Source of the DNA: Candidatus Hadarchaeales archaeon | GTDB lineage: Archaea; Hadarchaeota; Hadarchaeia; Hadarchaeales; WYZ-LMO6 | Direction of reading: 5' to 3' | Length of the DNA: 64,000 nt | NCBI GenBank assembly: GCA_038736355.1 | Contig: JAVYML010000003.1 | Span: 22,093 to 86,092 of the forward strand | Part shown: piece by piece, positions 1 through 34,942 of the stretch | Layout: each line of letters opens with the position of its first letter | How positions within the stretch are numbered: position 1 is the first letter of the stretch | Translations under genes and position numbers: made by a program | The notes under the pieces: generated by a model | The model's database searches: none | Told to the model about the DNA's origin: nothing | The model's input: the letters and a program-made list of their open reading frames with translations, nothing else

Positions 1-565
1 AGCCGGTGCTTTGGACGGCATTGCTGCCGCCATACCCCAAAGTTGAGGTAGCAAACCGCGGGGTCGATATGGACTCTCGCCCGCGACCACTCTGTTATCC
101 CCGGGGTACCTTTTCTGTCATCCGGAGCCCTCACCAAGAGGGACATCCGGGTTCGCTAGGCCCGGCTTTCGCCCCTGCGCGCCTTGGTAGTGAGCGCGCA
201 GTCAGGCCGGCTTTTGGCCTTGTCCTTGGCGGCGGAGTTCTGACCCGCCTAAGCCGACCTTTGGACCCCCTCGATATCTTTTCGAGGGGCTGCCGCCCCA
301 GCGAAACTGCCCACCTGCCGTTGTCCCCCTGACGGGGTTAGGGGCACGGTTAGGAGTGGGCGGTGTTACATCGGCGCCTCCGCCGGACCCGAAGATCCGG
401 CTTCCACGGCTCCCGCCTACCCTCTGCACCCGCAACCGCGTCCCAGCGACAGGCTGCAGTAAAGGTCCACGGGGTCTTCGTTTCCCTTCGGGGGACCCCG
501 GCATGTTCGCCGGCAAGCGGGTTCACCGGGTTGCAGGCCGGGACAGTGGGGGGCTCGTTGATTCC

Positions 566-597
<32 letters not shown>

Positions 598-602
598 TTA
601 CG

Positions 603-1304
603 CTACCTTAAGCTCCCTTCCTCACATGTCGGAAGGTGGACCATATCATCGCCCTCCTCGGGCGCCTGGCGTATGGTCTCTGAGGATCCCCCTTCAACGA
701 GCCTTTCCAGTTTTTCCCTCTTTTCGGGATGTCTGAATCCTATGGCATCCCTGAACTTTTTCACTCTCTCCAAGCCTTTTATGACCAGCGAGAACTGCGG
801 ATTTTTCCCCCATGCCCTCGGTTTTTTGACGGAAATCGCACTTTCAATCCCTGCTTCCAGAAGAATTCCATGTAGCTGTCCGATGAGAGGCCTGGCGATC
901 ATGTCGATCCCGACATATGGATAGCTGTAGGTTTTTCCCCCATGCTTTTGTTTGTCGACTCCACAGTAGCCTTCTGCATCGAAGAGCCCCCTTGCCACCT
1001 CCAGCCTTGAGACTTTGTCCTCCGTGAAAGTCTTCGGAATTCTGAGGGTGGTGAGTTTCCTTCCCTTCGGGTACCCGATTTTCACGAAGAACTTATGGAT
1101 ATCCTTGCGGTTGGTACTGACTATCCAACAGTTCGGCGAACCCCTGTTCACCCTCGGCTTGAAGTTGAAGATCCTTTCGACGGTCTTTGCGATGCTTTCC
1201 GCAAATTCCCTGTTCTTATCCCTGCAAAACACCGTGTACGAATTTCCATAGACACCTCCGTCACCGAGCATTACACCAACGAGGTAAGCTAGGGACTCTG
1301 TCAT
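603..1304 (-). CDS. LAGLIDADG homing endonuclease (intron-encoded). The ORF runs 9 nt into the downstream exon.
   Basis: Two LAGLIDADG-type motifs are present (LAYLVGVMLGDGGV and RGLFDAEGYCG). The start is chosen at the Met just before the first motif (MTESLAYLVG). The long ORF-track version (to 1523) extends into exon sequence and is not used. Confidence 0.7.
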   Translation of the reverse strand: MTESLAYLVGVMLGDGGVYGNSYTVFCRDKNREFAESIAKTVERIFNFKPRVNRGSPNCWIVSTNRKDIHKFFVKIGYPKGRKLTTLRIPKTFTEDKVSRLEVARGLFDAEGYCGVDKQKHGGKTYSYPYVGIDMIARPLIGQLHGILLEAGIESAISVKKPRAWGKNPQFSLVIKGLERVKKFRDAIGFRHPEKREKLERLVEGGSSETIRQAPEEGDDMVHLPTCEEGSLR

Positions 1305-1463
1305 CACTGTCGATTTAAGAGGGACTCTGTTATTTCGTTTCCGGCCCTCTGGGGTTTCCTGCGGGTCGACCTCATCGGAGATGGACTTTGTTACCCTTTT
1401 TCGGGTAGCCCATCTCCCCTCACGTCTTCCCCGCATACAGCCAGGTTTTACAACCCCCTTCTC
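612..1463 (-). mobile_element. rRNA intron (archaeal type) encoding a LAGLIDADG homing endonuclease, inserted near E. coli 23S position ~1925-1927
   Basis: Removing 612..1463 restores the conserved 23S sequence ...GGGGGTAACTATAACCCTC/TTAAGGTAGCGTAATACCTTGCCG. The intron interior carries the endonuclease ORF. Boundaries are good to within a few nt. Confidence 0.75.
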
Positions 1464-3599
1464 GAGGGTTATAGTTACCCCCGCCCATTGGCGGCGCTTC
1501 GGCCGGTTGTACCCGGCTTTCACGTACCGCCTGTAGGCAGAATTCAGCTCCCGTACTCACCCTTTCGGGCTAGCGGGAACCTACGTTTTTATTAAACAGT
1601 CGGCCCCCCCTGGTCACTGCGACCTGCCCTCCGCAGGGCAGGCACCCCTTCTCCCGAAGTTACGGGGCCAACTTGCCGAATTCCCTGGCCTGCTGTCTCC
1701 CGTCACACCTTAGGCTTCTCACCTAGGGGCACCTGTGTCGGATCTAGGTACGGTCACCCAGGATCCCATTTCCGGTCCCCCTTTTCACGGGCCCCGGAGA
1801 TGAACCGAACCCGCCTAACGGCAGGCCCATCCCGCCCTCATCCGGTTCTCTCCATTACGGAACTCCCCGGACTTCGACGGTTGGATGGGGCGACGGCCCC
1901 ACTCGGTCTGCCCCGAGGCGTCGGAGGACCGGCCTGCGTTGCCGCCGGTACCTGGGTGGTTCCGGAATATTAACCGGATTCCCTTTCGGCGGCCTCTGGT
2001 TGAGGGCCGCCTCAGGACCGACTAACCCTCGGCTGACGACCATTGCCGAGGAACCCGGGCCCCTTCGGCGGTGGGGATTCTCACCCCACTAGGCTGTTAC
2101 TACCACCAGGATCCTCGTTCCCACGCGGTCCACCCGACCTCACGGCCGGGCTTCTCCCCACGCGGGACGCCCCCCTACCGGATCAGGCTACTGAACTTCG
2201 CCTGCCCCGGGGTCTCGGCAGCTGGCTTAAGCCCCGTTCATCTTCGGTGCCCCCACCCTCGACGGGTCCGCTTTTACGCGTTGTTTAAAGGGTGGCTGCT
2301 TCTGAGCCTACCTCCCCGCTGTCTCAGGGTGGAGACGCCCTTTGGATTTCTGCACTTAGCCAGCATTTGGGGGCCTTAACCCCGGTCTGGGTTGTTCCCC
2401 TCTCGGAGCGGGAGCTTACCCCCCGCACCCCGTCTCCGGCGGTCTACGGCGCCGGTCGCTTCGGAGTTCGACAGCGAGGGCAAGGGTTTCCCCCTGTCAC
2501 CCCGCAATCGGTGCTCTACACGACCGGCTACCTCGCGCCGGGCCTGACTGCGGCCAGCTTCGGGGGGAACCAGCTGTCACCGGGCTTGATGGGTCTTTCG
2601 CCACTAGCCCAGGGTCATCCGACCGAATTGCACGTCAAGACCGGTTCGGCCCTCCACCCCATAGAGGGGCTTCAGCCTGCCCTGGACTAGATCGCCCGGT
2701 TTCGGGTCTCACCGCCGTGACTCCGGGCGCTGTTAACACCCCGTCCCTCGCCCTTTCGGGCTGCGGACCGTCGCTTTCGCTCCGGCTCCGGGGTTTCAAC
2801 CCCTTAACCTCGCCACGACGGTGAACTCCCTGGCCCGTGATTCAAGACGGACGGTACGACCCCGATCCCCCTCCCTCGTACCACCGCCTCACGGCGGCTT
2901 CCTTCGGGAGGGCTCACCTCTTTCGAGCCGTACCTTACTGTCGCCACCTGGTTTCAGGCTCTTTTCACCCCCCTTCCGGGGTACTTTTCAGCTTTCCCTC
3001 GCGGTACTGCGTTCGCTATCGGTCTCGAGACGTATTTAGGGTTGGGAGTTGGTGCCTCCCAGCTTCGGACGCCAATCCCAAGGCGCCCTACTCAGGATCC
3101 CTCCCCTCGTATCCTGCACAGTTACCCCTACGGGGCTTTCACCCTCTACGGCGCGCCATTCCAGGCGACTTCGGGTTCCCGTGCGAGGAATTGGGGGAGG
3201 TCCTACAACTCCACATCCCCGACGACTTTCGCCGCCGGGTTCGGTTTGCCCTGTGCCCTCTTCACTCGCCGTTACTGAGGGCATCGCTTTTGCTTTCTCT
3301 TCCTCCCGGTACTGAGATGTTTCACTTCCCGGGGTTCCCGTTCGCAGCTCCCAAAAGAGCCGCGAACGCAGGGGGTTAACCCCTGCAGGATTCCCATTCG
3401 GTGATCCCGGGTTCTACGGCTGCCTGCGCCTCGCCCGGGCTTTTCGCAGCTTGCCACGACCTTCTTCGGCGCTCGAGCCGAGCCATCCCCCAGGTGGCTT
3501 GGTTCCCCGCTCGACGGCTTCCGGACCTGTGCCTGGCCTCATCAGCTTTTAGCCTGAGCCCTTCGCGCGAGAAGCGCTCTCTCTTCCCGCGCTGCATGC

Positions 3600-3674
3600 T
3601 GGTGGACCCGCCGGGATTCGAACCCGGGGCCTTCGGCTTGCAAAGCCGACGCTCTACCACTGAGCTACGGGCCC
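3600..3674 (-). tRNA. tRNA-Ala (anticodon UGC), CCA encoded, in the 16S-23S spacer
   Basis: Reverse complement folds as GGGCCCG-TA-GCTCAGTGGTAGAGC-G-TCGGC-TTTGCAA-GCCGA-AGGCC-CCGGG-TTCGAAT-CCCGG-CGGGTCC-A-CCA. The G3:U70 alanine identity pair is present and the anticodon is TGC. Confidence 0.9.
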
Positions 3675-5458: not shown

Positions 5459-6133
5459 ATGGATCAGGAAATAGATGTTTCCGTGGTCGTCCCCACCTAC
5501 AACGAGGCTGGAAATCTCCCTCCCTTGATCAGGCGGTTGGCAAGGGCCTTGAGGGGCAGGAGGTGGGAAGTGGTGGTGGTGGATGATGGTTCCCCAGATG
5601 GTACGGGGAAGGTAGCGGAGATCTTGGCCAGGAAGTATCCTGTCAGGCTGGTTCAGCGTGGGAAGAGGGGTGGTCTCTCCTCTGCAGTGGTGGAAGGATG
5701 GCGGCATGCGGGAGGCAGGGTCCTGGTGGTGATGGATGCCGATCTCCAGCATCCACCCGAGCTGGTTCCAGAGCTGGTGATGAAAGTGGAGGAGGGGAAC
5801 GATTTGGTCCTGGCCTGCAGGACGCGATGGGTGGGATGGAGGGGGGCTGCCTCCAAGTTGATGGGCGAACTGGTGAGGACCCTTTTGCACCTTCCCGTGC
5901 GGGATCCCCATTCGGGCTTCTTCGCCCTACGCCGGGTGGTTGGGAGGATAAAACCGAGGGGGTACAAAATCCTCCTGGAATGTCTGGTGAGGGGGAGGTA
6001 CAGAAGGGTGGCTGAAGTTTTCTACTCCCAAGGGAAAAGGAAATGGGGGAGGAGCAAATGGGGGGTGAGGGAGGGGTGGGAGTACCTGCGGCAGCTTCTG
6101 GATCTCTTAGGGTATTCAAAGGGGGGAAGATGA
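5459..6133 (+). CDS. Family 2 glycosyltransferase (dolichyl-phosphate mannose/glucose synthase-like)
   Basis: VSVVVPTYNEAGNL...VVVVDDGSPDGT...VMDADLQHPPE are GT2 / Dpm1-type motifs. The ATG at 5459 is chosen because the longer ORF (from 5192) would overlap the 16S 5' end. Confidence 0.85.
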   Translation: MDQEIDVSVVVPTYNEAGNLPPLIRRLARALRGRRWEVVVVDDGSPDGTGKVAEILARKYPVRLVQRGKRGGLSSAVVEGWRHAGGRVLVVMDADLQHPPELVPELVMKVEEGNDLVLACRTRWVGWRGAASKLMGELVRTLLHLPVRDPHSGFFALRRVVGRIKPRGYKILLECLVRGRYRRVAEVFYSQGKRKWGRSKWGVREGWEYLRQLLDLLGYSKGGR

Positions 6134-6204
6134 ACCGGGTCCGGAGATAGTGGAGGATATGGACCCACTACCTCAGGTACAAACTGGCCTCTCCCCCCCT
6201 TTCT

Positions 6205-7150
6205 TTTGCCAACTATTTCATCACCGTGAGATGCAATTTGAAGTGTATTTACTGCCCAGTGAGAACGGATACAGGCTCCAAAATCTTTGATTACTGTTCC
6301 TCTTCCAGGCAAGAACTCAGCACGGAGGAGGCTAAGAGGGCAATGGAGGAACTGGGAAAGCTTGGCACCCTCTGGATTTCCTTCAGCGGAGGCGAGCCCC
6401 TCCTACGTCCAGATCTGGAAGAAATAGCCGATAAGGCTAGGAGGGAAGGGATGTTTACCATCTTGGACACCAATGCCACCCTCATAACCAAAAAGGAGGG
6501 CGAGAACCCTCTCCAGAGTTTTCGACAGTGCAGTGGTATCCCGTCAGGGGATGGAAAGGAAGAACGATGAGATGAGGGGGAAGGGCACCTGGGGGAGGAC
6601 AGAGGGGAATAGAGTTTCTGAAGGAGAGCGGGTGTGAGGTGGGGGTGAACTTCATCCTGACCAACCTCAACCTGGGGAAAATAGAGGAAGTAGTGAACTT
6701 TCTGAGGGAAAGGGTGGATCATCTCTTTTTCAACCCCGTTTGTGAGGCCAAGGGTTCATGCCCACCAGGGAACAGGTGAGGTGGTTGGAAGGCAAGCTTT
6801 TTTGAGCTGAAGAGGGAGCACGGGAGTTTCCTTTCCAATTCCCCAGAGCATTTGCGGGCCATCGTGAGGTACCTTCGGGGGGGAGGGTGGTGGAGTGCGA
6901 ACCCTTCACCCTGCATGTTTCCCTCATGCCCAACGGAGATCTCTGCGGATGCTTTTACCCTTTTCCGGTGGGGAAAGTGGGGGGGAAGATTTGGAGGAGG
7001 TCAGACTGAGGGGGAAGGAGAAAAGGGAGGAACTCTGGCGGGAATGCGGTGGATGTGCCAACTCCTCCTATTTCCACGTCACCAGGCTCTTCAGGGGATC
7101 TCCCTTTACCTGCTGGAAAGAAGATTTTCCCCCTAGGCAGAACCATTATG
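6205..7150 (+). pseudogene. Radical SAM/SPASM-domain gene disrupted by at least four frameshifts
   Basis: Frame 1 gives VRCNLKCIYC (CX3CX2C) then SFSGGEPLLRPDLEEI, and stops at 6570. Downstream fragments in other frames read GIEFLKESGCEVGVNFILTNLN..., EPFTLHVSLMPNGDLCGCFYPF, and ELWRECGGCANSSYFHVTRLF (SPASM-like Cys motifs). Homopolymer G/C runs sit at the frame breaks, so sequencing error cannot be excluded. Confidence 0.6.
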
Positions 7151-7329: not shown

Positions 7330-8280
7330 ATGATGAGGTTCCTCCGCCTCAGGGCTTGGAGATTTCCCTTCTTCCACAGGATGATCTGGCTTCTTTCACC
7401 CCTCCTCTACTTCGTCTTCAGCAGGGACCTCTTTTCCTCCTTCCTTCCCACTTTTTTTCTCCTCCTCCCCTTTCTCTTTCTATACGGTGCCTTCTCGGTG
7501 CTGATCAACGACTATTTTGATTTCCCTTTCGATCTCGCGGCGGGCAAGGAGGTTGAACCCCTCTCGCGCACGGAGATCCTCCTCCTCTCCTCCCTTACCC
7601 TTTCGGCCTGCCTGGGGCTCTCCTTCCTATTATCCCCCAGTTTGTCCTTCCTCCCCCTGCTTGGCCTGATCCTGGCCTTCCTTTACTCGGTGAAGGGAAT
7701 AAGACTAAAGGAGAGGGGATGGATGGGAGTGGGAACGGACGTGGGTATAGAGTTCCTCCCCCTCCTCTTCTCCATCCTCCTCCTGCGCCTCCCCCGATGG
7801 GATCCCGATGTGTTTCTCTTCCTCCTTCTCTACATCTCCGTCCAGCTGACCTCCCAAGTGGAGCACCAGCTGAAGGACTTGGAGAGGGACAGGAGGGTGG
7901 GACTGAAAACGCTGGTTACCGAAAGGGGGGAGGAATTCGGCCTGAGGCTCCTTCGCTTCTTTTCTTCCCTCTCCTTCCTCCTCCTCTTTCCACTCCTATT
8001 CTGGTTTTCCTCTCTCCCCTGGTTCAGCCCGCTCTTTCTCTTCTTTCTCCTTTTCTCCCTCTTCCACCCCAAATGGAACCCTGAATTTCCCCAAGCCCAT
8101 AGGGTCTCCCCCCTCTTCGCCGATATCTTCTACCTCTTCCTCTTCCAAATTTTCCCCCTTTATCTCTCCCTTCTCATGGTATGGACCCATCCTTTCTTCC
8201 TTCCCCTCCTCCCCCCCATCCTCCTCCTCGATTGCAGGTTCCTGTTCATGTCCTGGAGGTGGATAAGGAGATGGGTTTGA
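7330..8280 (+). CDS. UbiA-family prenyltransferase-like polytopic membrane protein
   Basis: First Asp-rich motif NDYFDFPFD (NDxxDxxxD) and second motif DLERD (DxxxD), with ~8 hydrophobic helices. Confidence 0.75.
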   Translation: MMRFLRLRAWRFPFFHRMIWLLSPLLYFVFSRDLFSSFLPTFFLLLPFLFLYGAFSVLINDYFDFPFDLAAGKEVEPLSRTEILLLSSLTLSACLGLSFLLSPSLSFLPLLGLILAFLYSVKGIRLKERGWMGVGTDVGIEFLPLLFSILLLRLPRWDPDVFLFLLLYISVQLTSQVEHQLKDLERDRRVGLKTLVTERGEEFGLRLLRFFSSLSFLLLFPLLFWFSSLPWFSPLFLFFLLFSLFHPKWNPEFPQAHRVSPLFADIFYLFLFQIFPLYLSLLMVWTHPFFLPLLPPILLLDCRFLFMSWRWIRRWV

Positions 8281-9383
8281 AACTGGCGGTTTGCCACGAT
8301 CTCCTCAGCGTGAAGGGGGGTGCGGAAAGGGTAGTCCTTACGGTGGCGAGGGCCTTCAGGGCCGAGGTTTTCACTCTCCTCTACGATCCCTCCCAGGCCT
8401 TCGAGGAGGCCAGGGGGCTGAAGATCCACACCCTCGGCGACTGGAAGCTGCCCCAGGATCGGAGGTTCTATCCCTGGATTTATCCCTTCTTCCACGGCTG
8501 GGGAATCCTGAAGTTCCTCGGATTAGACCTGAGGGGATACGATGCCGTTTTCACCAGCGGGAAGCTCGGTATCTTCGCCAAGGGAGAGGTAACCCTCCAC
8601 TACTGCCATTCCCCTCCTCGTTTCCTCTACGACCTTCGCCCCATCGTTTCCCTCTATCTGGGAAGGAGGTACGGATCGCCGGTGAGGGCCCTCGCCGAAC
8701 TCTGGTGGAGGGGGTGGAGGAGGATGGACGAATGGGCGGCAAGGAGACCGAACCTAATTTTGGCCAACTCCTTGGAGGTAAAGAAAAGGATCTGGAGGTA
8801 CTACGGGAGGGAGGCGGAGGTCGTCTATCCTCCCGTAAAAGTGGAGAAGTTCAGGATGAAGGGGGGAGGGGAATACTTCTTGGCGGTCCAGAGGCCAAGC
8901 CCGGAGAAGAGGATAGAGCTCCTCCTCAGGATCTTCAAGAGGCTGCCGGGCGAGAGATTGGTGCTGGTGGGCAGCTACATAGATCCCGACTACACGGCAT
9001 GGCTTGAAGAAAAGATGAGGGGGATGGGGAACGTGAGCTGGCTGAAGGAGGTGAGCGAGAGAGAACTGGTGGAGCTGTATGCTGGATGCAAAGCCCTCGT
9101 GCACACAGCCAGGAGGGAGGATTTTGGCATGGCGCCCGTGGAGGCCATGGCCTCTGGCAAGCCCGTGATAGCCGTGAACGAAGGGGGGGTGAGGGAAACG
9201 GTGGTGCATGGGAAGACGGGCCTGCTGGTTGATCCCCCCTACCTGAAGAACTTCGTGAGGATCCTCAAGGGCTTCGATCCTTCCCTCTTCTCCCCCAGGG
9301 AATGCAGGAGGAGGGCGGAGGAGTTCTCTGAGGAGAGGTTCGTGAGGAGGATGAAAGAACTGCTGGGGAGGATGCTCGGATGA
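8271..9383 (+). CDS. Family 4 (GT-B) glycosyltransferase
   Basis: C-terminal EDFGMAPVEAMASGKPVIAVNEGGVRETV is the retaining GT4 signature (EX7E). The ATG at 8271 overlaps the end of the UbiA-like gene. Confidence 0.85.
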   Translation: MGLKLAVCHDLLSVKGGAERVVLTVARAFRAEVFTLLYDPSQAFEEARGLKIHTLGDWKLPQDRRFYPWIYPFFHGWGILKFLGLDLRGYDAVFTSGKLGIFAKGEVTLHYCHSPPRFLYDLRPIVSLYLGRRYGSPVRALAELWWRGWRRMDEWAARRPNLILANSLEVKKRIWRYYGREAEVVYPPVKVEKFRMKGGGEYFLAVQRPSPEKRIELLLRIFKRLPGERLVLVGSYIDPDYTAWLEEKMRGMGNVSWLKEVSERELVELYAGCKALVHTARREDFGMAPVEAMASGKPVIAVNEGGVRETVVHGKTGLLVDPPYLKNFVRILKGFDPSLFSPRECRRRAEEFSEERFVRRMKELLGRMLG

Positions 9384-13933: not shown

Positions 13934-14029
13934 TGGGGCCAGGGCCGGGAGCTCCGCCGGTCTTACCGGATTCGAACCCGGGTCACGGGATCCACAGTCC
14001 CGGATGCTGACCGCTACACCACCCTGGCC
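13934..14029 (-). tRNA. tRNA-His (anticodon GUG) with encoded G-1 and CCA, and a probable ~20-nt non-canonical intron in the T-arm
   Basis: Reverse complement is G-GCCAGGG-TG-GTGTAGCGGTCAGCAT-CGGGA-CTGTGGA-TCCCG-TGAC-CCGGG-TTCGAAT-CC[GGTAAGACCGGCGGAGCTCC]CGG-CCCTGGC-C-CCA. A canonical T-stem forms only if the bracketed ~20 nt are spliced out. Confidence 0.75.
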
Positions 14030-14090: not shown

Positions 14091-16043
14091 TTACCCACTC
14101 CTCTTCCCTTCAACCAGTTTCCGCAGGGTCTCCACGGCTTCCGGATTGAGGAGGGTAGAAGTATCACCCACGGGAGCGTTAACGAGGAGGGCTTTTAAGA
14201 TCCTGCGCATGATCTTTCCGCTCCTTGTCCTTGGGAGGTCGGGAGCGAAGACGATCTCTTCGGGGGTGGCTATGGGCCCTATTTTCTCCCTCACTAGGGC
14301 CCTGAGTTCTTCCTCCAGCTCCTTCGAGGGAGCCCTACCTTCTTTCAAGACCACATAGGCTACGGGAACTTCACCCTTTAGGTCGTGTGGCTTGGGCACC
14401 ACCGCGCTCTCCACCACGAAGGGATGGGTATTGAGCACATCCTCCATCTCCGCGGTGGAGAGACGATGTCCTGCCACCTTCATCACATCGTCCACCCTGC
14501 CCGTCACCCTGATGCATCCGTAAAGGGTTCTGATGGCCCCGTCGGAAGGGAAGTAATAGCGATAGTTGTACTTCAGCCAGTAAGTTTCCCTATACTTTTC
14601 ATCCGCCTTATAAAGACCCCTGAGCATGGCTGGGGCCAGGGGAGGTACTTGCACCAGATATCCCGAGTCCGTCGGATTTCCTTCCTCGTCCACGATTTCC
14701 ATGTGTACGCCGGGGAAGGGTCTTCCCGCCACCGTGGGGATGAAGGGCCCTATTCCTGGGAGGGACATGATCAGGGTTCCACCGGTCTCCGTTTGCCACC
14801 AGGTGTCCGTGATGGGGCATCTCCCTCCCCCTATTTTGTAGAAGTACCAAAGCCAAGTCTCCCTATCTATGGGTTCTCCCACGGTTCCAAGCAACCTGAG
14901 GGAGCTGAGATCGTGCTTCTTCACCCACTCCTCCCCCCACCTAGCGAACATCCTGATGGCGGTGGGGGCGGTATAGAAGATGGTGACCTTGAATTTCTCT
15001 ATGATTTCCCAGAAGCGGTCGGGGGCTGGGTAATCGGGAGCCCCCTCGTAGATGAGAAGGGTGGCACCGTTCAGGAGGGGACCATAGCATGCGTAGGTAT
15101 GTCCCGTTACCCATCCTATGTCAGCAGTGCACCAGAAGAGATCGTCATCGTGGAGGTCGAATACCCACTTGGAGGTCCAGTAAGCTTGGGTGAGGTAACC
15201 ACCCGTGGTATGGATTACACCTTTCGGCCTTCCCGTGGTACCGCTGGTGTAGAGGAGGAAGAGCATGTCTTCGCTGTCCATGTGCTCTGGAGGACACCAG
15301 GGATCGGCTTCTTCCATCAGTTCGTGCCACCACAAGTCCCTCCCCTTTTCCATTTTCACTTCGTTCCCCGCCCTCCTCACCACCACCACCTTCTCCACAC
15401 TGGTTCCCTTGATGGCTTCGTCTGCATTGGCCTTGAGGTCCACCACTTTCCCCCTCCTGTAGTAGCCATCGCAGGTGATCAGTACTTTAGCTTCCGAATC
15501 TTCCAGTCTAACCCTCAGGGCCTCGGGGGCAAAGGCGGAGAAGACTACCGTGTGTGGAGCTCCTATCCTGGAGCAAGCAAGGATGGCCGGATAGAGTTCG
15601 GGAATCATCGGGAGATAGATTCCCACCCTGTCCCCCTTCTTCACCCCCAGACTCTTCAAAACGTTGGCAAACTTATTGACTTGGAGGAAAAGTTCGTTGT
15701 AGGTAAGTACCCTTGGTTTTTCATGGGGTGGCTCGGGAACCCACACCACCGCCCTTTTGTTTCCCTTTCCTGCCTTTACGTGCCTGTCCACCGCGTTGTA
15801 GCTGGCGTTGATCTTTCCTCCTATGAACCACTTCACGTAGGGAGGGTTCCACTCGTGGGCTTTCTCCCAGCGTTTAAACCATTCCAGTCCCTCGGCCGCC
15901 AGTTTTTCCCAGAAGGCTACCCTATCTTTGGCGGCCTCCTCGTAAATGTTGGGATCACTCACCCAGGCCTTCTTCTTCATCTCCTCGGAAGGCCACCAGA
16001 CGTTTTTCTCCTTCGGATCCTCTACTACCCATTGAGTCGGCAT
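14091..16043 (-). CDS. acs: Acetyl-CoA synthetase (AMP-forming)
   Basis: 650 aa with the ACS N-terminal domain (WWPSEEMKKKAWVSDPNIYEEAAKD...), AMP-binding motifs YTSGTTGRPKGV and TGD, and a C-terminal PDLPRTRSGKIMRR. Confidence 0.93.
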   Translation of the reverse strand: MPTQWVVEDPKEKNVWWPSEEMKKKAWVSDPNIYEEAAKDRVAFWEKLAAEGLEWFKRWEKAHEWNPPYVKWFIGGKINASYNAVDRHVKAGKGNKRAVVWVPEPPHEKPRVLTYNELFLQVNKFANVLKSLGVKKGDRVGIYLPMIPELYPAILACSRIGAPHTVVFSAFAPEALRVRLEDSEAKVLITCDGYYRRGKVVDLKANADEAIKGTSVEKVVVVRRAGNEVKMEKGRDLWWHELMEEADPWCPPEHMDSEDMLFLLYTSGTTGRPKGVIHTTGGYLTQAYWTSKWVFDLHDDDLFWCTADIGWVTGHTYACYGPLLNGATLLIYEGAPDYPAPDRFWEIIEKFKVTIFYTAPTAIRMFARWGEEWVKKHDLSSLRLLGTVGEPIDRETWLWYFYKIGGGRCPITDTWWQTETGGTLIMSLPGIGPFIPTVAGRPFPGVHMEIVDEEGNPTDSGYLVQVPPLAPAMLRGLYKADEKYRETYWLKYNYRYYFPSDGAIRTLYGCIRVTGRVDDVMKVAGHRLSTAEMEDVLNTHPFVVESAVVPKPHDLKGEVPVAYVVLKEGRAPSKELEEELRALVREKIGPIATPEEIVFAPDLPRTRSGKIMRRILKALLVNAPVGDTSTLLNPEAVETLRKLVEGKRSG

Positions 16044-16104: not shown

Positions 16105-16435
16105 GTAAGATATATTACTGCGGGAAGAAAGAAGAATGGTGCCGGCGAGCTGGTGGGCAGCTGCCGGGCGGTAACGCCTGAGGAAATTCCACCCCTCAAG
16201 CGGGTACCGCGAGTCCGTGAGGACTGGGCCGAGAGGCCCGACCCTGGCACAGAAACGATACCCGCCGGCTTCTCGAGGAGGATGAGGCGGAAACGCTGAG
16301 AGGGGGTCGGGGGATGAAACGGCCATTCCGCGGGAGGCAAGGGCAAAAGACCGTCTATGAGCACCCGCTCGAGACGGGTGGTAGCCCGCTAAGCCCAATG
16401 CTGCCTAGAACAGAAGGTGGATTACGGCCAGGACG
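16105..16435 (+). ncRNA. rnpB: Candidate RNase P RNA (archaeal type A-like)
   Basis: A ~430-nt GC-rich gap between acs and rps26e has no credible ORF. It contains motifs resembling conserved RNase P RNA regions: GGGCGGTAACGCCTGAGG (P10/11-like GGUAACGCC), GGCACAGAAACGATACCCGCCGG (like ACAGAAAACAAACCGCCGG), GGCAAGGGCAAAAGACCG (like CAAGGCCAAAUAGGG), and GCCTAGAACAGAAGGTGGATTACGGCC (like CUAGAUAGAUGAUCGCC). A clean CR-I (GGAAAGUCCGGGCUCC) is not obvious and the ends are approximate. Confidence 0.5.
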
Positions 16436-16473
16436 CCGGCACTCCATCACCCTTTTATCCCGTAGACGGGAGG

Positions 16474-17820: not shown

Positions 17821-19029
17821 ATGGATTTTGAACTGACCGAGGAACAGCGGATGTTCAAGGAAACCCTGAGGGAGTTCTTGAACAAGGAATTTCCTGAGTC
17901 CTATGTGAACAAGAGGGATGCCCAGGGACCGCTCACCAGGGAGGAAGCGATACAGATCATGAAGAAGTTCAAGAGCATAGGAATAGGTCTCGATCCGGAG
18001 AACATCAGAATGATGATGGATCCAATGATTTTCTGTATCTTCGCTGAGGAAGTGGGAAGGGTCTGGCCCAGCCTTCTACCCCTCTTTGGGATGGGGGCCA
18101 TTCCCGCCCTTTTCGCTCCCTTTGCCGATGAGGACGTGAAGGACAGGATCCTGAGGAGGATGGAGAGATGCGAGTTCATAGGATGCTTCGCCGAAACTGA
18201 GCCTGAAGCGGGTTGCGACACCTCCAACATAAAGACCACTGCTAAGCTGGAGGGCGATCATTACGTCATCAACGGAAGGAAGACTTGGATAAGCAATGCA
18301 CCCATCGCCGACACCGCCTGGGTGGGAGCCAAAGACCTGGAGACGGGGGCGGAGACTTTCTTCCTCGTGGAAAAAGAAATTTCGGGCTGGGAGACGAACG
18401 AACTCCACAAGATAGGGTGGAAGGCCTCCCCGACCGGGGAGATGTTCTTCGACAACTGCAAGGTGCCCAAGAACAACGAGATGATGGTGCTGGTGCAGAG
18501 GGCCTTCGAACAGGGAGGACTCCCCGTATCCGAGGGCTACATGAAGCTCTTGACCTCCGTTTCCCCCGTCACGGCCATGCTCACCATGCCCAGAGCGGGG
18601 ATGTGCCTGATGTCGGTGGGGATAGCGGAAGCCGCTTTCGAGAAGGCCGTGGAATATGCCAAGGTGCGTGTACAATTCGGGAAGCCCATCGGTAAGTTCC
18701 AACTGATTCAGGAGATGCTCTACAAGATGAACGTACTGATAGAGACGGCTAGGTTGCTGGGATACAGGGCAGTATACGCCATCACCAAGGGAGATCCGGA
18801 TGCCAGGAGGCTCTCCGCCATGGCGAAAGCATATGGTGGAGAGGCAGCGGTGAAGGTAACCTACATGGCCATGCAGATCTTCGGGGGACTGGGACTTTCT
18901 GAGGAGATGCCCTTGGAGAGGTACTTCCGTGATGCTAGGATGCAGACGGTCCCAGATGGAACCACCGAGATCATGAAGCTGATCACGGGATACTCCATCC
19001 TAGGAAAGGGCTTTTCTGCCTACGCCTGA
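17821..19029 (+). CDS. Acyl-CoA dehydrogenase
   Basis: N-terminal FELTEEQRMFKETLREFL, middle CFAETEPEAGCDTSNIKTTA, C-terminal QIFGGLGLSEEMPLERYFRDARM. Confidence 0.88.
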   Translation: MDFELTEEQRMFKETLREFLNKEFPESYVNKRDAQGPLTREEAIQIMKKFKSIGIGLDPENIRMMMDPMIFCIFAEEVGRVWPSLLPLFGMGAIPALFAPFADEDVKDRILRRMERCEFIGCFAETEPEAGCDTSNIKTTAKLEGDHYVINGRKTWISNAPIADTAWVGAKDLETGAETFFLVEKEISGWETNELHKIGWKASPTGEMFFDNCKVPKNNEMMVLVQRAFEQGGLPVSEGYMKLLTSVSPVTAMLTMPRAGMCLMSVGIAEAAFEKAVEYAKVRVQFGKPIGKFQLIQEMLYKMNVLIETARLLGYRAVYAITKGDPDARRLSAMAKAYGGEAAVKVTYMAMQIFGGLGLSEEMPLERYFRDARMQTVPDGTTEIMKLITGYSILGKGFSAYA

Positions 19030-19073: not shown

Positions 19074-19119
19074 GCAAAAGTTAAATAAGCAAAGGGCGGT
19101 ATAAGTTGTAAATTTTTTG
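19074..19119 (+). promoter_or_regulatory. Putative BRE/TATA promoter elements upstream of the por operon
   Basis: AAAAGTTAAATAAGC (19076-19090) and GGTATAAGTTG (19099-19109) are A/T-rich TATA-like boxes 25-55 nt upstream of the porG GTG at 19133. The second would suit a leaderless transcript. Confidence 0.35.
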
Positions 19120-19132
19120 GCCTGGGGAAAAA

Positions 19133-19660
19133 GTGATCGAAATAAGGTTCCACGGGAGGGGTGGACAGGGGGCTGTTACGGCGGCCCGCATGTTAGCGGA
19201 AGCCGCCTTTTTAGAAGGTAAATATGCTCAGGCCTTTCCCTTCTTCGGGGCGGAGAGAAGGGGAGCACCCGTGGTTTCCTTCGCGAGGATCGATACCAAA
19301 CCCGTGAGGATAAGGAGTCAGATCTATGAGCCGGATCACGTGGTGGTGCTCGATAGCACCCTGCTCAAGACCGTCAACGTCACGGAGGGTCTAAAGCCAG
19401 GAGGTCTCTTGGTTGTGAACGCCAAGCAAAATCCGAAGCTGAGTGCTGGGAGGACGGTTTGGGTGGATGCCACCTCCATAGCAGTGGAGGAAATAGGGGC
19501 GCCCATTACCAACATGGCCATGCTGGGAGCCTATGTGAGGGCTTCGGGGGAAGTGAGCTTGGAGTCGGTTCTTACCGTGGTGGGAAGGTACTTCAAGGGA
19601 AAGCTGGGGGAGAGGAACCTGAGGGCCATAAGGAGGGCCTACGAGGAGGCGAGGGAATGA
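19133..19660 (+). CDS. porG: Pyruvate/2-oxoacid:ferredoxin oxidoreductase gamma subunit
   Basis: GTG start. [47 protein letters not shown] is the canonical POR gamma N-terminus. Confidence 0.88.
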
Positions 19661-20808
19661 AGCTACTGCCAGGAATAGTGATAGATAGACCCGGAAGCAG
19701 TGTGGAATATTTGACCTCCGGATGGAGGTACCTACGTCCGGTGAGGGAGAGGAAAACCGCTCCTTGTGTTTCCGCCTGTCCGATAGAAAACGACATCCCT
19801 AGGATCCTTTGGTTGGTTAAAAGGGGAAGACTGGAGGAAGCTTGGAAGACCCTCAAGTCGACCAACCCCTTTCCCTCGATATGCGGGAGGGTGTGTTATC
19901 GTTTTTGTGAAGGGGCTTGCAACAGGAAGGATTTCGATGAGGCCATAGCCGTGAGGAGCGTGGAGCGTTTCCTGGGAGATCTCGGAAGGGAAAAGGGCTG
20001 GAGGGTGGAGCCGGGAAGGGCCACTGGACATTCGGTGGCGATAGTCGGTGGTGGTCCTTCAGGTCTCTCCTGCGCCTACCATTTGAGACTCAGGGGGCAT
20101 GAGGTGAGGATCTTCGAAGCCAAGGAAAAGGAGGGTGGTTTGATGGCCTGGGGTATCTCGGAGGAACTCCTCCCCAGGGAGGTCCTGGAGGAAGAACTCT
20201 CCCTCCTAAGGGGGATGGGGGTGGAGGTGGAGAGGAGGGAGGTGAAGGGGAGGGGAGAGCTCAAGGGCTATGGGGCGTTGGTGTTGGCTACGGGGAGGAG
20301 CCCCCTTCCCGAAGGGTTGGCGGAAGGACTGAAAAGGAAGGGGGAAAAGGTGGAAGGGGACAAATGGGGGAGGACGGAGATAGGAGGACTTTTCGTTACG
20401 GGTGAGCTGGCGGCAGGGGTAAGGAGGGGGGTGGCCTGGGCCATAGGCTCTGGAAGGAGGACGGCCTTAGCAGTGGATGCTTTCCTCAAGGGTAGGGAGG
20501 TGGAGGAAGAAGGGGTGCCGCCCATCCTCGGTCTGGAGGAGATCAGACTGGACTACTTCAACTTTTCTCCTAGGGTGGGAGGGAGGGAAGGTCCCTCTTC
20601 GGAGGAAGAAGTGGAGGCGGAGGCTGGAAGGTGCTTCAGTTGTGGCATGTGCAACGGATGTGATAATTGCTGGATTTTCTGTCCGGAGGGATGTATCGTG
20701 AAGGAGGGGGAAACCGAATACAGGACGGATGAGAACTATTGTAAGGGATGCGGGATCTGTGCCCAAGAATGCCCTAGGGGCGTGATAAGGATGGAGGAGG
20801 AGGGATGA
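19657..20808 (+). CDS. Fusion protein: GltD-like Fe-S flavoprotein module (N-terminal ~290 aa) joined to a POR delta-subunit-like 2x[4Fe-4S] ferredoxin domain (C-terminal ~90 aa)
   Basis: N-terminal [13 protein letters not shown]...[16 protein letters not shown] matches the glutamate synthase small-subunit Fe-S region. [17 protein letters not shown] is an FAD Rossmann motif, and [12 protein letters not shown]...AIGSGRRTA is a GD-type motif. C-terminal [21 protein letters not shown]...[13 protein letters not shown] is PorD-like. The ATG at 19657 overlaps the porG stop (ATGA). Confidence 0.75.
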
Positions 20809-21980
20809 AGCTATTACTCAACGGAAACGAGGCCGCGGCCTTGGCGGCCAAGCTCGCTAGGGTTCAAGTGATTTCCGCCTATCCCATCACCCCCCAGACG
20901 GTGGTGGTGGAAACCCTAGCCAAGTACGTGGCCGATGGGGAGTTGGATGCCGAGTTCGTGAAGGTGGAATCGGAGCATAGTGCCTTGAGCGTTTGCTTGG
21001 GTGCCTCCGCCGCGGGTGCAAGGGCCTTCACCGCCACCTCCTCCCAGGGTCTCATGCTGATGAGTGAAATCCTGTACGTGGTCTCGGGCATGAGGCTTCC
21101 GGTGGTGATGGCCAATGCCAATCGTTCCCTCTCCGCCCCCCTGAGTATCTGGAACGATCAGCAGGATTCCCTCTCGGTCAGAGACAGTGGCTGGATCCAG
21201 CTCTACTGTGAGAACAACCAGGAGATCCTCGATCTCCTTCTCCAGGCCTTCCTCTTGGCGGAGCGCATTTCCCTGCCCGCGATGGTTTGCTACGATGGGT
21301 ACATCCTTTCCCACACGGCCGAGGCCGTGGAGGTACCAGAACAGGCTGAGGTGGATGCCTTCCTTCCCCCCTATTCTCCGGCTTTCAAGTTGGATCCTTC
21401 CCGCCCCCTCACGATGGGTCCCGTGGGAGTACCGGAGGTTTACATGGAGGCAAGGTATCTACAGCATCGTGACATGCGAAGGGCTAAAGAGGAATTCGTG
21501 AGGGTGACGGAAGAATTCCGGAGGAGGTTCGGGAGGAAATACGGAATTCTGGAGGAGTATAGGACGGAAGATGCTGAGCTCCTCCTCTTCACGATGGGAT
21601 CCTTGATGGGAACGGTCAGGGAGGCGGTGGACAGGTGCAGGGAAAAGGGGGAAAAGGTGGGGGCGGTGAAGCTCACCCTCTACCGCCCCTTCCCGGAACA
21701 GGAGGTCGTGAGGGCACTCTCTAGGGGTAAGGTGGTGGGGATACTCGAGAAAGATATCTCCACAGGATGGATGGGTGCCCTCTATACGGATACCGTGGCT
21801 GCCTTCGCGAACGAGTCCAAGAGACCCCTTTTCCAGAACTTCATCTTGGGTTTGGGGAGTAGGGATGTGAGGGTGGAAGATGTGGAAGGGATCGTGGCGA
21901 GGCTCAAGAAGGTGGTGGAGGAAGGAAGGGTGGAAGAAAACCCCTGTTGGATAGGGGTAAAGAAGGAGCTGGTGGAATGA
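20805..21980 (+). CDS. porA: Pyruvate:ferredoxin oxidoreductase alpha subunit
   Basis: [29 protein letters not shown]...[36 protein letters not shown] is the POR alpha signature. Confidence 0.9.
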
Positions 21981-22852
21981 TACCCGAAGAAGAGCTTCTG
22001 GCACCAGGACATCGTGCCTGTCCTGGATGTGGTGAGGTCATGGCCCTCAGGTGGATCCTGAAGGCCTTGGGGAGGGAGATAATCGTGGTGCAGGCCACCG
22101 GTTGTATGGAGGTCACCACCACTCCCTATCCCCAGACTTCTTGGAGGGTCCCCTGGATTCACGGGGCCTTCGAGAACGCGGCTGCCATCGCCTCGGGGGT
22201 GGAGGTGGCCCTCAAGAGGCTGGGGAGGAAGGGGGTGAAGGTGGTGGCCATAGCGGGGGACGGGGGGACGGCAGACATAGGGCTCCAGGCCCTTTCCGGA
22301 ATGATGGAGAGGGGACACAACGTGCTCTATGTGTGCACCGACAATGAGGCCTACATGAACACGGGCATACAGAGGAGCGGGACCACCCCCTTCGGTGCTT
22401 GGACCACCACCACCCCTGCGGGAAAACTCTGGAAGGGAGAGGATAGGCCCAAAAAGGATGTACCTTCCATAGCTTTGGCCCACCGCATTCCCTATGTGGC
22501 CACTGCCTCCGTGGGATATCCCAAGGATCTCTTCTGGAAGGTGAGGAAGGCGGCGAGCGTGGAGGGACCCTCCTATCTCCATGTCCACTGTCCTTGCCCC
22601 ACCGGTTGGAGACACGATTCCTCCCTTACGGTGAGGATAGCGAGGTTGGCCGTAGAGACGGGTTGTTGGATCCTCTGGGAGGCCGAGGGGGGGAGGATCA
22701 AGTTAACCTTCAGACCGAAGCGGAGGAAGCCCGTGAGGGAGTACCTCAGGCTCCAGGGGAGGTTCTCCCATCTGACGGAAGAGGAGGTGGAGAGGATTCA
22801 GAGGGAAGTGGATGAACGCTGCAGGGAGCTGAATTTGGGCTGGTATGGATAA
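21977..22852 (+). CDS. porB: Pyruvate:ferredoxin oxidoreductase beta subunit (TPP-binding)
   Basis: CPGCGE...VVQATGC...[45 protein letters not shown] is the TPP-binding POR beta. The ATG at 21977 overlaps the porA stop. Confidence 0.9.
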
Positions 22853-34854: not shown

Positions 34855-34942
34855 GCGGGGGTGGCCGAGCCAGGTCAAAGGCGCCAGACTCAAGATCTGG
34901 TCCCTTAGGGGTTCGGGGGTTCAAATCCCCTCCCCCGCACCA
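34855..34942 (+). tRNA. tRNA-Leu (anticodon CAA), long variable arm, CCA encoded
   Basis: GCGGGGG-TG-GCCGAGCCAGGTCAAAGGC-G-CCAGA-CTCAAGA-TCTGG-TCCCTTAGGGGTTC-GGGGG-TTCAAAT-CCCCT-CCCCCGC-A-CCA. Confidence 0.9.

Follow-up and report, generated by a model that had tools for sequence, protein, structure and literature searches.

A PorD-type delta subunit split by an NfnL/GltD-like Fe-S flavin module lacking the NAD(P)H-binding domain in Hadarchaeales

A four-gene POR operon with an enlarged delta subunit

We analyzed a 64-kb stretch of DNA from a Candidatus Hadarchaeales archaeon (contig JAVYML010000003.1, positions 22,093 to 86,092; the whole stretch is referred to as the window, and coordinates are those of the window unless stated otherwise). 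The focus is an operon for a pyruvate:acceptor oxidoreductase (POR; PFOR for the ferredoxin-linked enzymes) in which the gene at the position of the delta subunit encodes a protein of 383 amino acids (aa), henceforth the delta protein. The operon comprises four genes in the order gamma-delta-alpha-beta:

19133-19660, + strand: porC, gamma subunit, 175 aa, GTG start; Pfam POR, 150 bits
19657-20808, + strand: delta-position gene, 383 aa; PorD with an inserted, permuted NfnL/GltD-type Fe-S flavin module, without the NAD(P)H domain
20805-21980, + strand: porA, alpha subunit, 391 aa; Pfam POR_N and PFOR_II
21977-22852, + strand: porB, beta subunit with thiamine pyrophosphate (TPP) and a [4Fe-4S] cluster; Pfam TPP_enzyme_C; likely ATG start at 21977

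Start and stop codons overlap as ATGA at all three junctions (porC/delta, delta/porA and porA/porB), which makes translation of this gene set as a single unit almost certain. A putative TATA-like A/T-rich stretch lies at 19100-19119, just upstream of the GTG start of porC. By their NCBIfam matches the partner subunits are of the pyruvate type, and pyruvate is the predicted substrate: PorC scores 247.7 bits with NF006321 (pyruvate ferredoxin oxidoreductase gamma; cutoff 225) and PorB 464 bits with NF008819 (PorB; cutoff 405; the match begins at residue 11 of a longer open reading frame (ORF) with a TTG start), while PorA, at 533.7 bits with PorA_Arch, stays slightly below the cutoff of 550. The ORF at 19657-20808 contains no internal stop. 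A first-pass annotation made from the sequence alone had assigned the 383-aa protein to the delta position of a gamma-delta-alpha-beta POR operon, and the intact ORF, the ATGA junctions and the NCBIfam assignments of the partners bear this out. That the protein is encoded by a single gene, with neither a missed stop nor a frameshift, is documented by the uninterrupted ORF and by co-linear relatives on independent contigs (see below).

The flavin module is inserted into PorD

The delta protein can be divided into six segments:

19657-19755, + strand: residues 1-33, PorD N-terminal arm
19756-20010, + strand: residues 34-118, Fer4_20 core with C37, C41, C76, C80, C84 and C88; Pfam Fer4_20, 71.6 bits, profile positions 28-112 only
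20011-20511, + strand: residues 119-285, remnant of the flavin adenine dinucleotide (FAD)-binding domain, delimited by alignments and conserved motifs
20512-20571, + strand: residues 286-305, linker with a conserved (L)DYF, leading from the FAD domain back to the cluster domain, delimited by alignment
20572-20646, + strand: residues 306-330, displaced Fer4_20 N-terminal piece with C326 and C329, as suggested by a permuted-construct test
20647-20805, + strand: residues 331-383, PorD 2x[4Fe-4S] ferredoxin core; PorD_Arch and TIGR02179, and PFOR delta chain 9bt4_G positions 32-80

In Pfam, the delta protein matches Fer4_20 at residues 33-114, Pyr_redox_2 at residues 121-255 and a 4Fe-4S dicluster domain at residues 331-379. 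The Pyr_redox_2 match is partial and scores 42 bits, whereas in a longer homologue (P0011) the whole profile is covered with 138 bits. A sequence search of the PDB gave as top matches the NfnL-like part of NfnA (9n5u, E = 5.9e-41) and 9bov, followed by GltD, NfnL/NfnB and DPD; the C-terminus matches the PFOR delta chain 9bt4_G, and HdrA chains match the C-terminal ferredoxin part, too. An AF2 model calculated on the homologue alignment has a pLDDT of 93.2 and a pTM of 0.89, and Foldseek on this model returned 9bov_A, 8oh5_C and 9n5v_A as best hits (TMq 0.65-0.71), above GltD, NfnL and DPD. The GltD-like module with Fe-S clusters and FAD seen in the first-pass annotation is therefore recovered by Pfam as Fer4_20 plus a partial Pyr_redox_2 and by the PDB matches to NfnA and GltD. 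The best overall NCBIfam match is NF009410/PRK12771 (566 positions, 'NAD(P)-binding protein') with 308.3 bits against a cutoff of 516; it consists of two stretches and leaves the central part of the profile unmatched. PorD_Arch matches residues 331-382, and with the PorD models the intact protein reaches 69.8 bits for PorD_Arch (cutoff 120) and a borderline 60.6 bits for TIGR02179 (cutoff 60.05).

Residues 1-36 alone match PorD_Arch positions 5-31 (E = 6.9e-5), and the PorD arm pattern PG..TG.WR..RP precedes the cluster motifs. Splicing residues 1-33 to residues 331-383 gave 99.6 bits with PorD_Arch over positions 5-84 of 85, compared with 62 bits for the C-terminal part alone, and 90.8 bits with TIGR02179, well over its cutoff. 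Because both the arm and the spliced construct match PorD, the flavin module is an insert within PorD and not an N-terminal fusion: PorD is split by an insert of ~297 aa, which separates the N-terminal arm from the 2x[4Fe-4S] core. Of the architecture originally envisaged, the PorD ferredoxin at the C-terminus stands, but the simple N-terminal fusion has to be replaced by an insertion, given the PorD arm at residues 1-33 and the permuted Fer4_20.

The order of the module itself is also altered. The first CxxC of Fer4_20 falls within the first ~28 positions of the profile, which the native protein does not match. When residues 305-330 (ending in EAGRCFSCG) were moved in front of residues 34-118, the Fer4_20 score increased from 75.9 to 99.5 bits and the coverage from positions 30-112 to 12-112; the same permutation of P0011 increased the score from 76.4 to 106.1 bits, with coverage of positions 1-110. 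Based on this gain, the GltD-type module is circularly permuted: the third of its predicted cluster ligands, C37, now comes first, and the original first pair, C326 and C329, closes the module. In an alignment of 108 homologues, R325, C326, F327, C329 and G330 are invariant, as is Y300 of the linker, and F301 is nearly so.

The delta protein has 16 cysteines, eight in the module (C37, C41, C76, C80, C84, C88, C326 and C329) and eight in the two CxxCxxCxxxCP motifs of the PorD core (C332/335/338/342-P343 and C362/365/368/372-P373). These two motifs are invariant across the 108 sequences. Overall, 15 of the 16 cysteines are invariant there and C76 is present in most sequences (<90% in this alignment, ≥90% in a 10-sequence alignment). 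All eight Fer4_20-type cysteines are thus present in the module, two of them (C326 and C329) beyond the FAD domain, and their role in cluster ligation is predicted from the sequence. The 16 cysteines would be enough for four [4Fe-4S] clusters, two predicted in the module and two of PorD; the last module ligand, C329, lies three residues from the first PorD ligand, C332.

The NAD(P)H-binding domain is missing

The FAD-binding domain remnant carries the motifs GGGPSG (131-136), FE (153-154), GG (160-161), ATG (211-213), GE (249-250) and AIGSGRR (262-268). Compared with longer homologues (long forms), ~150 aligned columns are gone between 'LATGR' (residue 214) and 'SPLPEGL', among them the second GxGxxA/G motif. 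The site at which the NAD(P)H domain was deleted lies near residues 213-216 (nucleotides ~20293-20304), and across it the AF2 model retains a pLDDT >90. Proteins with this deletion (short forms) also lack ~14 residues before EAxRC. PF00070 scores 19.4 bits on the delta protein, below its cutoff of 22, and falls on the GxGxxG of the FAD domain, whereas it is significant in the long forms. The early impression that the protein has no separate NAD(P)H Rossmann domain is in agreement with these alignments. Using tblastn, we found neither the deleted Rossmann domain nor NfnSL encoded in trans in the 64-kb window, the part of the genome covered by the analysis.

We note that the arginine contacting flavin N5 in NfnL aligns with Ala164 in the delta protein (nucleotides ~20146-20151) as well as in the Hadarchaeales long forms ('GGMLAVG'), and that the position after Ala164 is a tryptophan in most short forms ('LMAWG'). 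In NfnL this arginine, R187 in the Pfu and R201 in the Tma protein, forms a hydrogen bond with N5 (PMC12018979).

The nearest homologues of the delta protein are named Candidatus Hadarchaeales or Hadesarchaea. The Hadarchaeales short forms, as assigned by the names of cluster members, make up 10 clusters of proteins of 376-390 aa that are 55-96% identical to the delta protein, co-linear with it and carry the same deletion; they are found on many independent contigs (up to 366 kb) and in many metagenome-assembled genomes. The closest long forms (P0011 and P0134; 48-50% identity) are also from Candidatus Hadarchaeales, and long forms of this type are encoded in the orthologous operon, porC-delta-porA-porB followed by an AMP-forming acetyl-CoA synthetase gene. 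Orthologous fusions in related genomes, which the first-pass annotation had proposed to look for, thus exist in a short and a long version. One short-form lineage (L001) and the long-form lineage (L090) moreover have a PorB intein in common. In a neighbor-joining tree of the shared columns, the short forms of Hadarchaeales fall into a single clade, and the sister group of this clade consists of the long forms of Hadarchaeales; because this BLOSUM62 tree has no support values, monophyly and independence of lineages are provisional. Based on tree position, shared synteny and the PorB intein, the simplest reading is that the Rossmann domain was lost through one in-frame deletion in the ancestor of the Hadarchaeales short-form clade, and that the short form is the derived state.

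The PorB inteins (Intein_splicing and LAGLIDADG_3 domains) are in proteins of 651-654 aa, encoded at 8300-10255 of L001 and 12755-14719 of L090, while the PorB of the window (21977-22852) and that of the P0010 lineage have no intein. Just upstream of its POR operon, the long-form locus L090 also contains an NfnS-like gene (5977-6825; FAD_binding_6, NAD_binding_1 and DHODB_Fe-S_bind) and a gene for a canonical 462-aa NfnL/GltD-like protein (7527-8915), for neither of which there is a counterpart in the window.

Delta subunits with an NfnL/GltD-type module are widespread

A pattern scan with confirmed relatives detected the PorD/GltD-like fusion in at least 541 GTDB species representatives from many bacterial phyla. 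Delta subunits with an NfnL/GltD-type module are thus common, and they also occur in Hadarchaeales and Woesearchaeota. The matches listed by the scan are bacterial long forms, and the count of at least 541 is therefore no measure of the short form among Hadarchaeota species. The best 80 of the at least 541 are all bacterial long forms (Proteobacteria, Actinomycetota, cultured Streptomyces, Gleimia, Varibaculum, Azospirillum, Desulfobacterota, Bacillota, Acidobacteriota and others), and 79 of these 80 loci adjoin porA/B/C, in the order gamma-alpha-beta-delta or gamma-delta-alpha-beta. A phmmer search of 1.84 billion representatives gave 1176 matches at E ≤ 1e-30; among the 150 best 50%-identity representatives, ~12 are shorter than 445 aa.

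Besides those of Hadarchaeales, short forms were found in Woesearchaeota (in a gamma-delta-alpha-beta operon), Hydrothermae, Acidobacteriota and Cellulomonas citrea. Their junctions and the lengths of their remnants differ, and no two of them pair with the same long form in the tree. Because of the differing junctions and separate tree positions, the Rossmann domain has probably been lost many times independently across the family, and the possibility that the short form is unique to the Hadarchaeales clade was ruled out by the scatter of short forms among the long forms. Together, the Hadarchaeales short form and the independent losses amount to a natural deletion series in which the Rossmann domain is dispensable and the clusters, in Hadarchaeales also the flavin motifs, persist. 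The role of the module is thereby open to direct testing.

The short form of the cultured actinobacterium Cellulomonas citrea (WP_159808332.1; 5001-6161 of locus L093) is an orphan without adjacent por genes. Its gene follows two genes for MFS transporters and adjoins genes for a TetR protein, an acyl-CoA dehydrogenase, a CoA-transferase and an ETF-QO-like protein. At the other end of the size range are relatives of 712-778 aa (P0155, P0172, P0182, P0194, P0210, P0217, P0224, P0241, P0259, P0270 and P0290) and of 1131-1189 aa (P0231 and P0278), in which the match to the delta fusion begins at ~residue 185-240 or ~580, suggesting further fusions, e.g. of gamma and long delta, or larger multi-domain proteins.

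Annotation resources already list the fusion family, as NF009410/PRK12771 in NCBIfam and as '2-oxoacid:acceptor oxidoreductase delta subunit' at JGI. A search of the open-access full-text literature yielded no biochemical characterization of the PorD/NfnL-like fusion in its long or short form. The notion that this POR architecture has not been characterized therefore stands as far as this literature goes, but the architecture is widespread and not a peculiarity of the locus. We conclude that the short form is a derived variant of an annotated family for which no characterizing paper was found and that it is not confined to Hadarchaeales.

The FAD remnant is maintained in Hadarchaeales

Compared with its relative P0005, the delta protein has an overall ratio of nonsynonymous to synonymous substitution rates (dN/dS) of 0.12, with 0.03-0.04 in the PorD parts, 0.13 in the Fe-S core and 0.19 in the FAD remnant; these values are rough because dS is near saturation. 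The delta protein, including the FAD remnant, is clearly under purifying selection by this measure. The ratio of the identity in the FAD remnant to that in the Fe-S core is 0.86-0.97 in pairs of short forms and 0.92-1.00 in pairs of long forms. GxGPxG, FE, GG, ATG, G(D/E) and AIGSGR are kept in all 11 of the short forms compared, with GD changed to GE in most of them. Given selection and the kept motifs, the remnant appears to be maintained and, judged by its motifs, looks able to bind FAD.

A proposed ferredoxin-linked POR with a side branch blind to NAD(P)H

In PFORs, electrons pass from TPP to the cluster of the beta subunit, from there to the two delta clusters, and finally to ferredoxin. 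The electron carrier that 2-oxoacid:ferredoxin oxidoreductases (OFORs) use at the pyruvate/acetyl-CoA node decides the balance of low-potential electrons in anaerobic and autotrophic metabolism. Because the NAD(P)(H) end point is gone, we favor, with moderate confidence, that the enzyme is a ferredoxin-linked POR/pyruvate synthase in which the delta subunit keeps an Fe-S/FAD side branch that is blind to NAD(P)H and available to another partner or as an electron buffer. Electrons from TPP-bound pyruvate would enter the PorB cluster and proceed to the two PorD clusters, from which they could either be delivered to free ferredoxin or turn into the side branch, i.e. via the two module clusters to FAD. 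In the long-form relatives, hydride exchange with NAD(P)(H) is the most likely end point of this branch, and the enzyme would be a pyruvate (2-oxoacid):NAD(P)+ oxidoreductase or perform some Nfn-like coupling. In the delta protein, where this end point is gone, the flavin is predicted to be exposed at the site of the former Rossmann domain, and the Fe-S/FAD stub may be redox-active and serve another partner, or act as a one-/two-electron buffer.

Several points weigh against this model. In most short forms, GE replaces the usual GD. Among independent short forms, P0206 ('GSNIAG'), P0254 and P0261 retain all 16 cysteines, but their GxGxxG or GG motifs are degenerate, which suggests that loss of the Rossmann domain may make the flavin dispensable. 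The ancestral NAD(P)H role of the long form would itself follow from domain homology, and cofactor content, activity, cluster geometry and flavin exposure are all predictions. Finally, a partner protein or a second canonical porD could lie outside the 64-kb window.

The first two of these points also fit a module that is vestigial, i.e. an ordinary ferredoxin-dependent POR in which flavin is no longer bound or used and the insert is structural or contributes two extra [4Fe-4S] clusters that would lengthen the wire or reshape the docking site for ferredoxin. That the NAD(P)H domain was lost repeatedly, at scattered places in the family tree, also speaks for this alternative, as does the FAD remnant being the fastest-evolving folded part of the protein (0.19 compared with 0.03-0.13 in the Fe-S parts). 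However, the Hadarchaeales short forms keep every FAD motif at 55-96% identity, the conservation of the remnant relative to the Fe-S core is near the level of the long forms, a dN/dS of 0.19 still indicates purifying selection, and the AF2 model is confident through the remnant. We regard a vestigial module as unlikely.

Alternatively, the flavin could resemble that of HdrA, fed only by Fe-S clusters and acting as a bifurcating or confurcating site or as a gate between one- and two-electron transfer; its partner at the former Rossmann site would not be a pyridine nucleotide but e.g. F420, a disulfide or polysulfide, a quinone-like carrier or a second Fe-S protein. The conserved flavin motifs are consistent with such a function. 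The FAD of HdrA, which has a thioredoxin reductase (TrxR) fold and no nucleotide site, can bifurcate between Fe-S branches. Moreover, the parent NfnL-type flavin is the bifurcating site in NfnSL (PMC12018979), and in ANME-1 archaea NfnB-like modules are found inside the ferredoxin domains of HdrA, while FrhB paralogues lie near POR (PMC9012536). Against this, no conserved partner gene was found, the acyl-CoA dehydrogenase gene next to the operon being missing from the P0010 lineage, and the sequence gives no sign of a second Fe-S branch from the flavin. The proposal is speculative and we consider it quite unlikely. Equally long odds apply to the far-reaching combination in which POR works as an HdrA-style coupling enzyme and the fusion family as a whole represents unrecognized prokaryotic 2-oxoacid:NAD(P)+ oxidoreductases or bifurcating OFORs.

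The first-pass annotation had suggested that the fusion could couple 2-oxoacid oxidation directly to a flavin or pyridine-nucleotide acceptor, bypassing free ferredoxin. For the delta protein, this would mean that NAD(P)+ or NAD(P)H binds either at the exposed flavin or to a Rossmann domain contributed by another protein. In a sister lineage within Hadarchaeales and in hundreds of bacteria, the corresponding place in the operon is taken by orthologues that do have the Rossmann domain, and OFORs that reduce NAD+ with the help of a GltD-like flavoprotein subunit exist, as reflected in the PadEFGHI models of NCBIfam. Direct coupling is thus plausible for the long forms. In the delta protein, however, the entire ~150-aa NAD(P)H-binding domain is gone, PF00070 is not significant and tblastn with the deleted domain gave no match in the window. 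Because the Rossmann domain was lost, direct coupling to NAD(P)+ is very unlikely here, and ferredoxin remains the acceptor that we favor. An artefact by frameshift, mis-assembly or merging of two genes can be dismissed based on the intact ORF, the many independent contigs and the purifying selection.

Should the long form be a pyruvate (2-oxoacid):NAD(P)+ oxidoreductase or a POR that bifurcates, a 'ferredoxin-dependent POR' assigned to such operons in metabolic reconstructions would imply the wrong carrier. The larger prize is the entire long-form family, which is also represented in aerobes, among them Streptomyces and Azospirillum. As for the Hadarchaeota, which are uncultured, the delta variant affects how the pyruvate/acetate node is modeled.

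Neighboring genes and other features of the window

Additional genes and RNA features in the window are:

14091-16043, - strand: AMP-forming acetyl-CoA synthetase
17821-19029, + strand: acyl-CoA dehydrogenase, directly upstream of porC
1-3514, - strand: match to archaeal large-subunit (LSU) rRNA
603-1523, - strand: ORF of 306 aa inside the LSU rRNA match, with a LAGLIDADG_3 domain (53.7 bits)
16145-16436 (+), 3603-3674 (-), 13958-14023 (-) and 34855-34939 (+): RNase P RNA and tRNA matches from an RNA model search

The acetyl-CoA synthetase gene neighbors POR in short-form as well as in long-form Hadarchaeales loci, and this conserved linkage fits a role at the acetate/acetyl-CoA/pyruvate node, of which it leaves the direction unspecified. 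The acyl-CoA dehydrogenase is unusually conserved, being 94% identical to its counterpart in L001, compared with 70-83% for the POR subunits; as a dedicated conserved partner of the operon it was ruled out, because neither the P0010 short-form lineage nor the long-form lineage has it.

The window also contains an archaeal rRNA operon. Its LSU rRNA match spans 3514 nucleotides and covers only model positions 1-2647, and the region of the ORF at 603-1523 most likely represents an intron of the 23S rRNA that codes for a homing endonuclease. Further matches in the RNA model search are to an archaeal RNase P RNA, with 202.8 bits, and to three tRNAs, of which one is a borderline match (29.8 bits).

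Comparison with known systems

Canonical PorD (TIGR02179; 9bt4_G, 85 aa) has the same N-terminal arm, the same two CxxCxxCxxxCP motifs and the same delta position in por operons as the delta protein, but is only ~80-105 aa long, the difference to 383 aa being due to the ~297-aa insert. The long-form PorD/NfnL-like fusions (~520-600 aa) share with it the arm, the permuted Fer4_20, the FAD domain, 'EAxRCFSCG', the PorD core, the 16 cysteines and the operon position; in contrast to the short form, the ~150-aa NAD(P)H Rossmann domain is present in them, as is the ~14-aa stretch before EAxRC.

OFORs tied to pyridine nucleotides through an added FAD flavoprotein, as the long forms may be, include PadEFGHI of Azoarcus/Aromatoleum and KorABC of A. 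evansii. The former, phenylglyoxylate:NAD+ oxidoreductase, was reportedly described by Hirsch et al. in 1998 (cited in PMC5109826) as an NAD+-reducing OFOR with a GltD-like flavoprotein subunit, and the latter, a 2-oxoglutarate:NADP+ oxidoreductase, is likewise said to be a pyridine-nucleotide-linked OFOR with an FAD flavoprotein component. In both, the flavoprotein is a separate subunit and NAD(P)+ is reduced, whereas in the delta protein the module lies within delta and reduction of NAD(P)+ is very improbable. With the PadE/F/G/I models of NCBIfam, all subunits of the window score below cutoff (gamma 172 of 300 bits, alpha 342 of 700, beta 278 of 700 and delta 37 of 150); because these scores are far below cutoff and the flavin module is not separate, membership in the NADH-dependent phenylglyoxylate dehydrogenase PadEFGHI was ruled out. 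In the eukaryotic PNO of Euglena and Cryptosporidium, PFOR is covalently joined to a flavoprotein module that diverts electrons from ferredoxin. This module is a CPR-type FMN/FAD/NADPH reductase at the C-terminus of a single-chain PFOR and is unrelated to the NfnL/GltD fold.

A truncated FAD domain has a precedent in TTHA0370 of T. thermophilus (PDB 2cvj, 180 aa), which consists of the FAD domain only and aligns end to end, if weakly (E = 3.9e-4), with residues 127-281 of the delta protein. Unlike the delta protein, TTHA0370 has no Fe-S clusters and no OFOR context, but it shows that a truncated TrxR-fold FAD domain can exist as a stable unit. With respect to genomic association, an NfnB-like gene flanks PFOR in Propionibacterium, where a complex has been only hypothesized (PMC7650540).

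The nearest structural counterpart is NfnA/StnC of the Bfu-type NfnABC (9n5u/9n5v, 9bov and 8oh5), which contains the same permuted module with two [4Fe-4S] clusters and FAD within a larger Fe-S protein and, as in the delta protein, has the EAxRCxxCG motif after the FAD domain. The host protein differs in being NuoG/Fdh-like and not PorD, and NfnA keeps the NADPH domain: its NfnL-like domain, with two clusters (A6 and A7) and FAD, oxidizes NADPH within a bifurcating complex with NfnB and NfnC (PMC12018979). In ANME-1, an NfnB-like module is inserted into the ferredoxin domain of HdrA, and FrhB paralogues cluster with POR there (PMC9012536). Based on the NfnL-like module within NfnA and the NfnB-like insertion in HdrA of ANME-1, we suggest by analogy that the NfnL/GltD-type module behaves as an insertable cassette.

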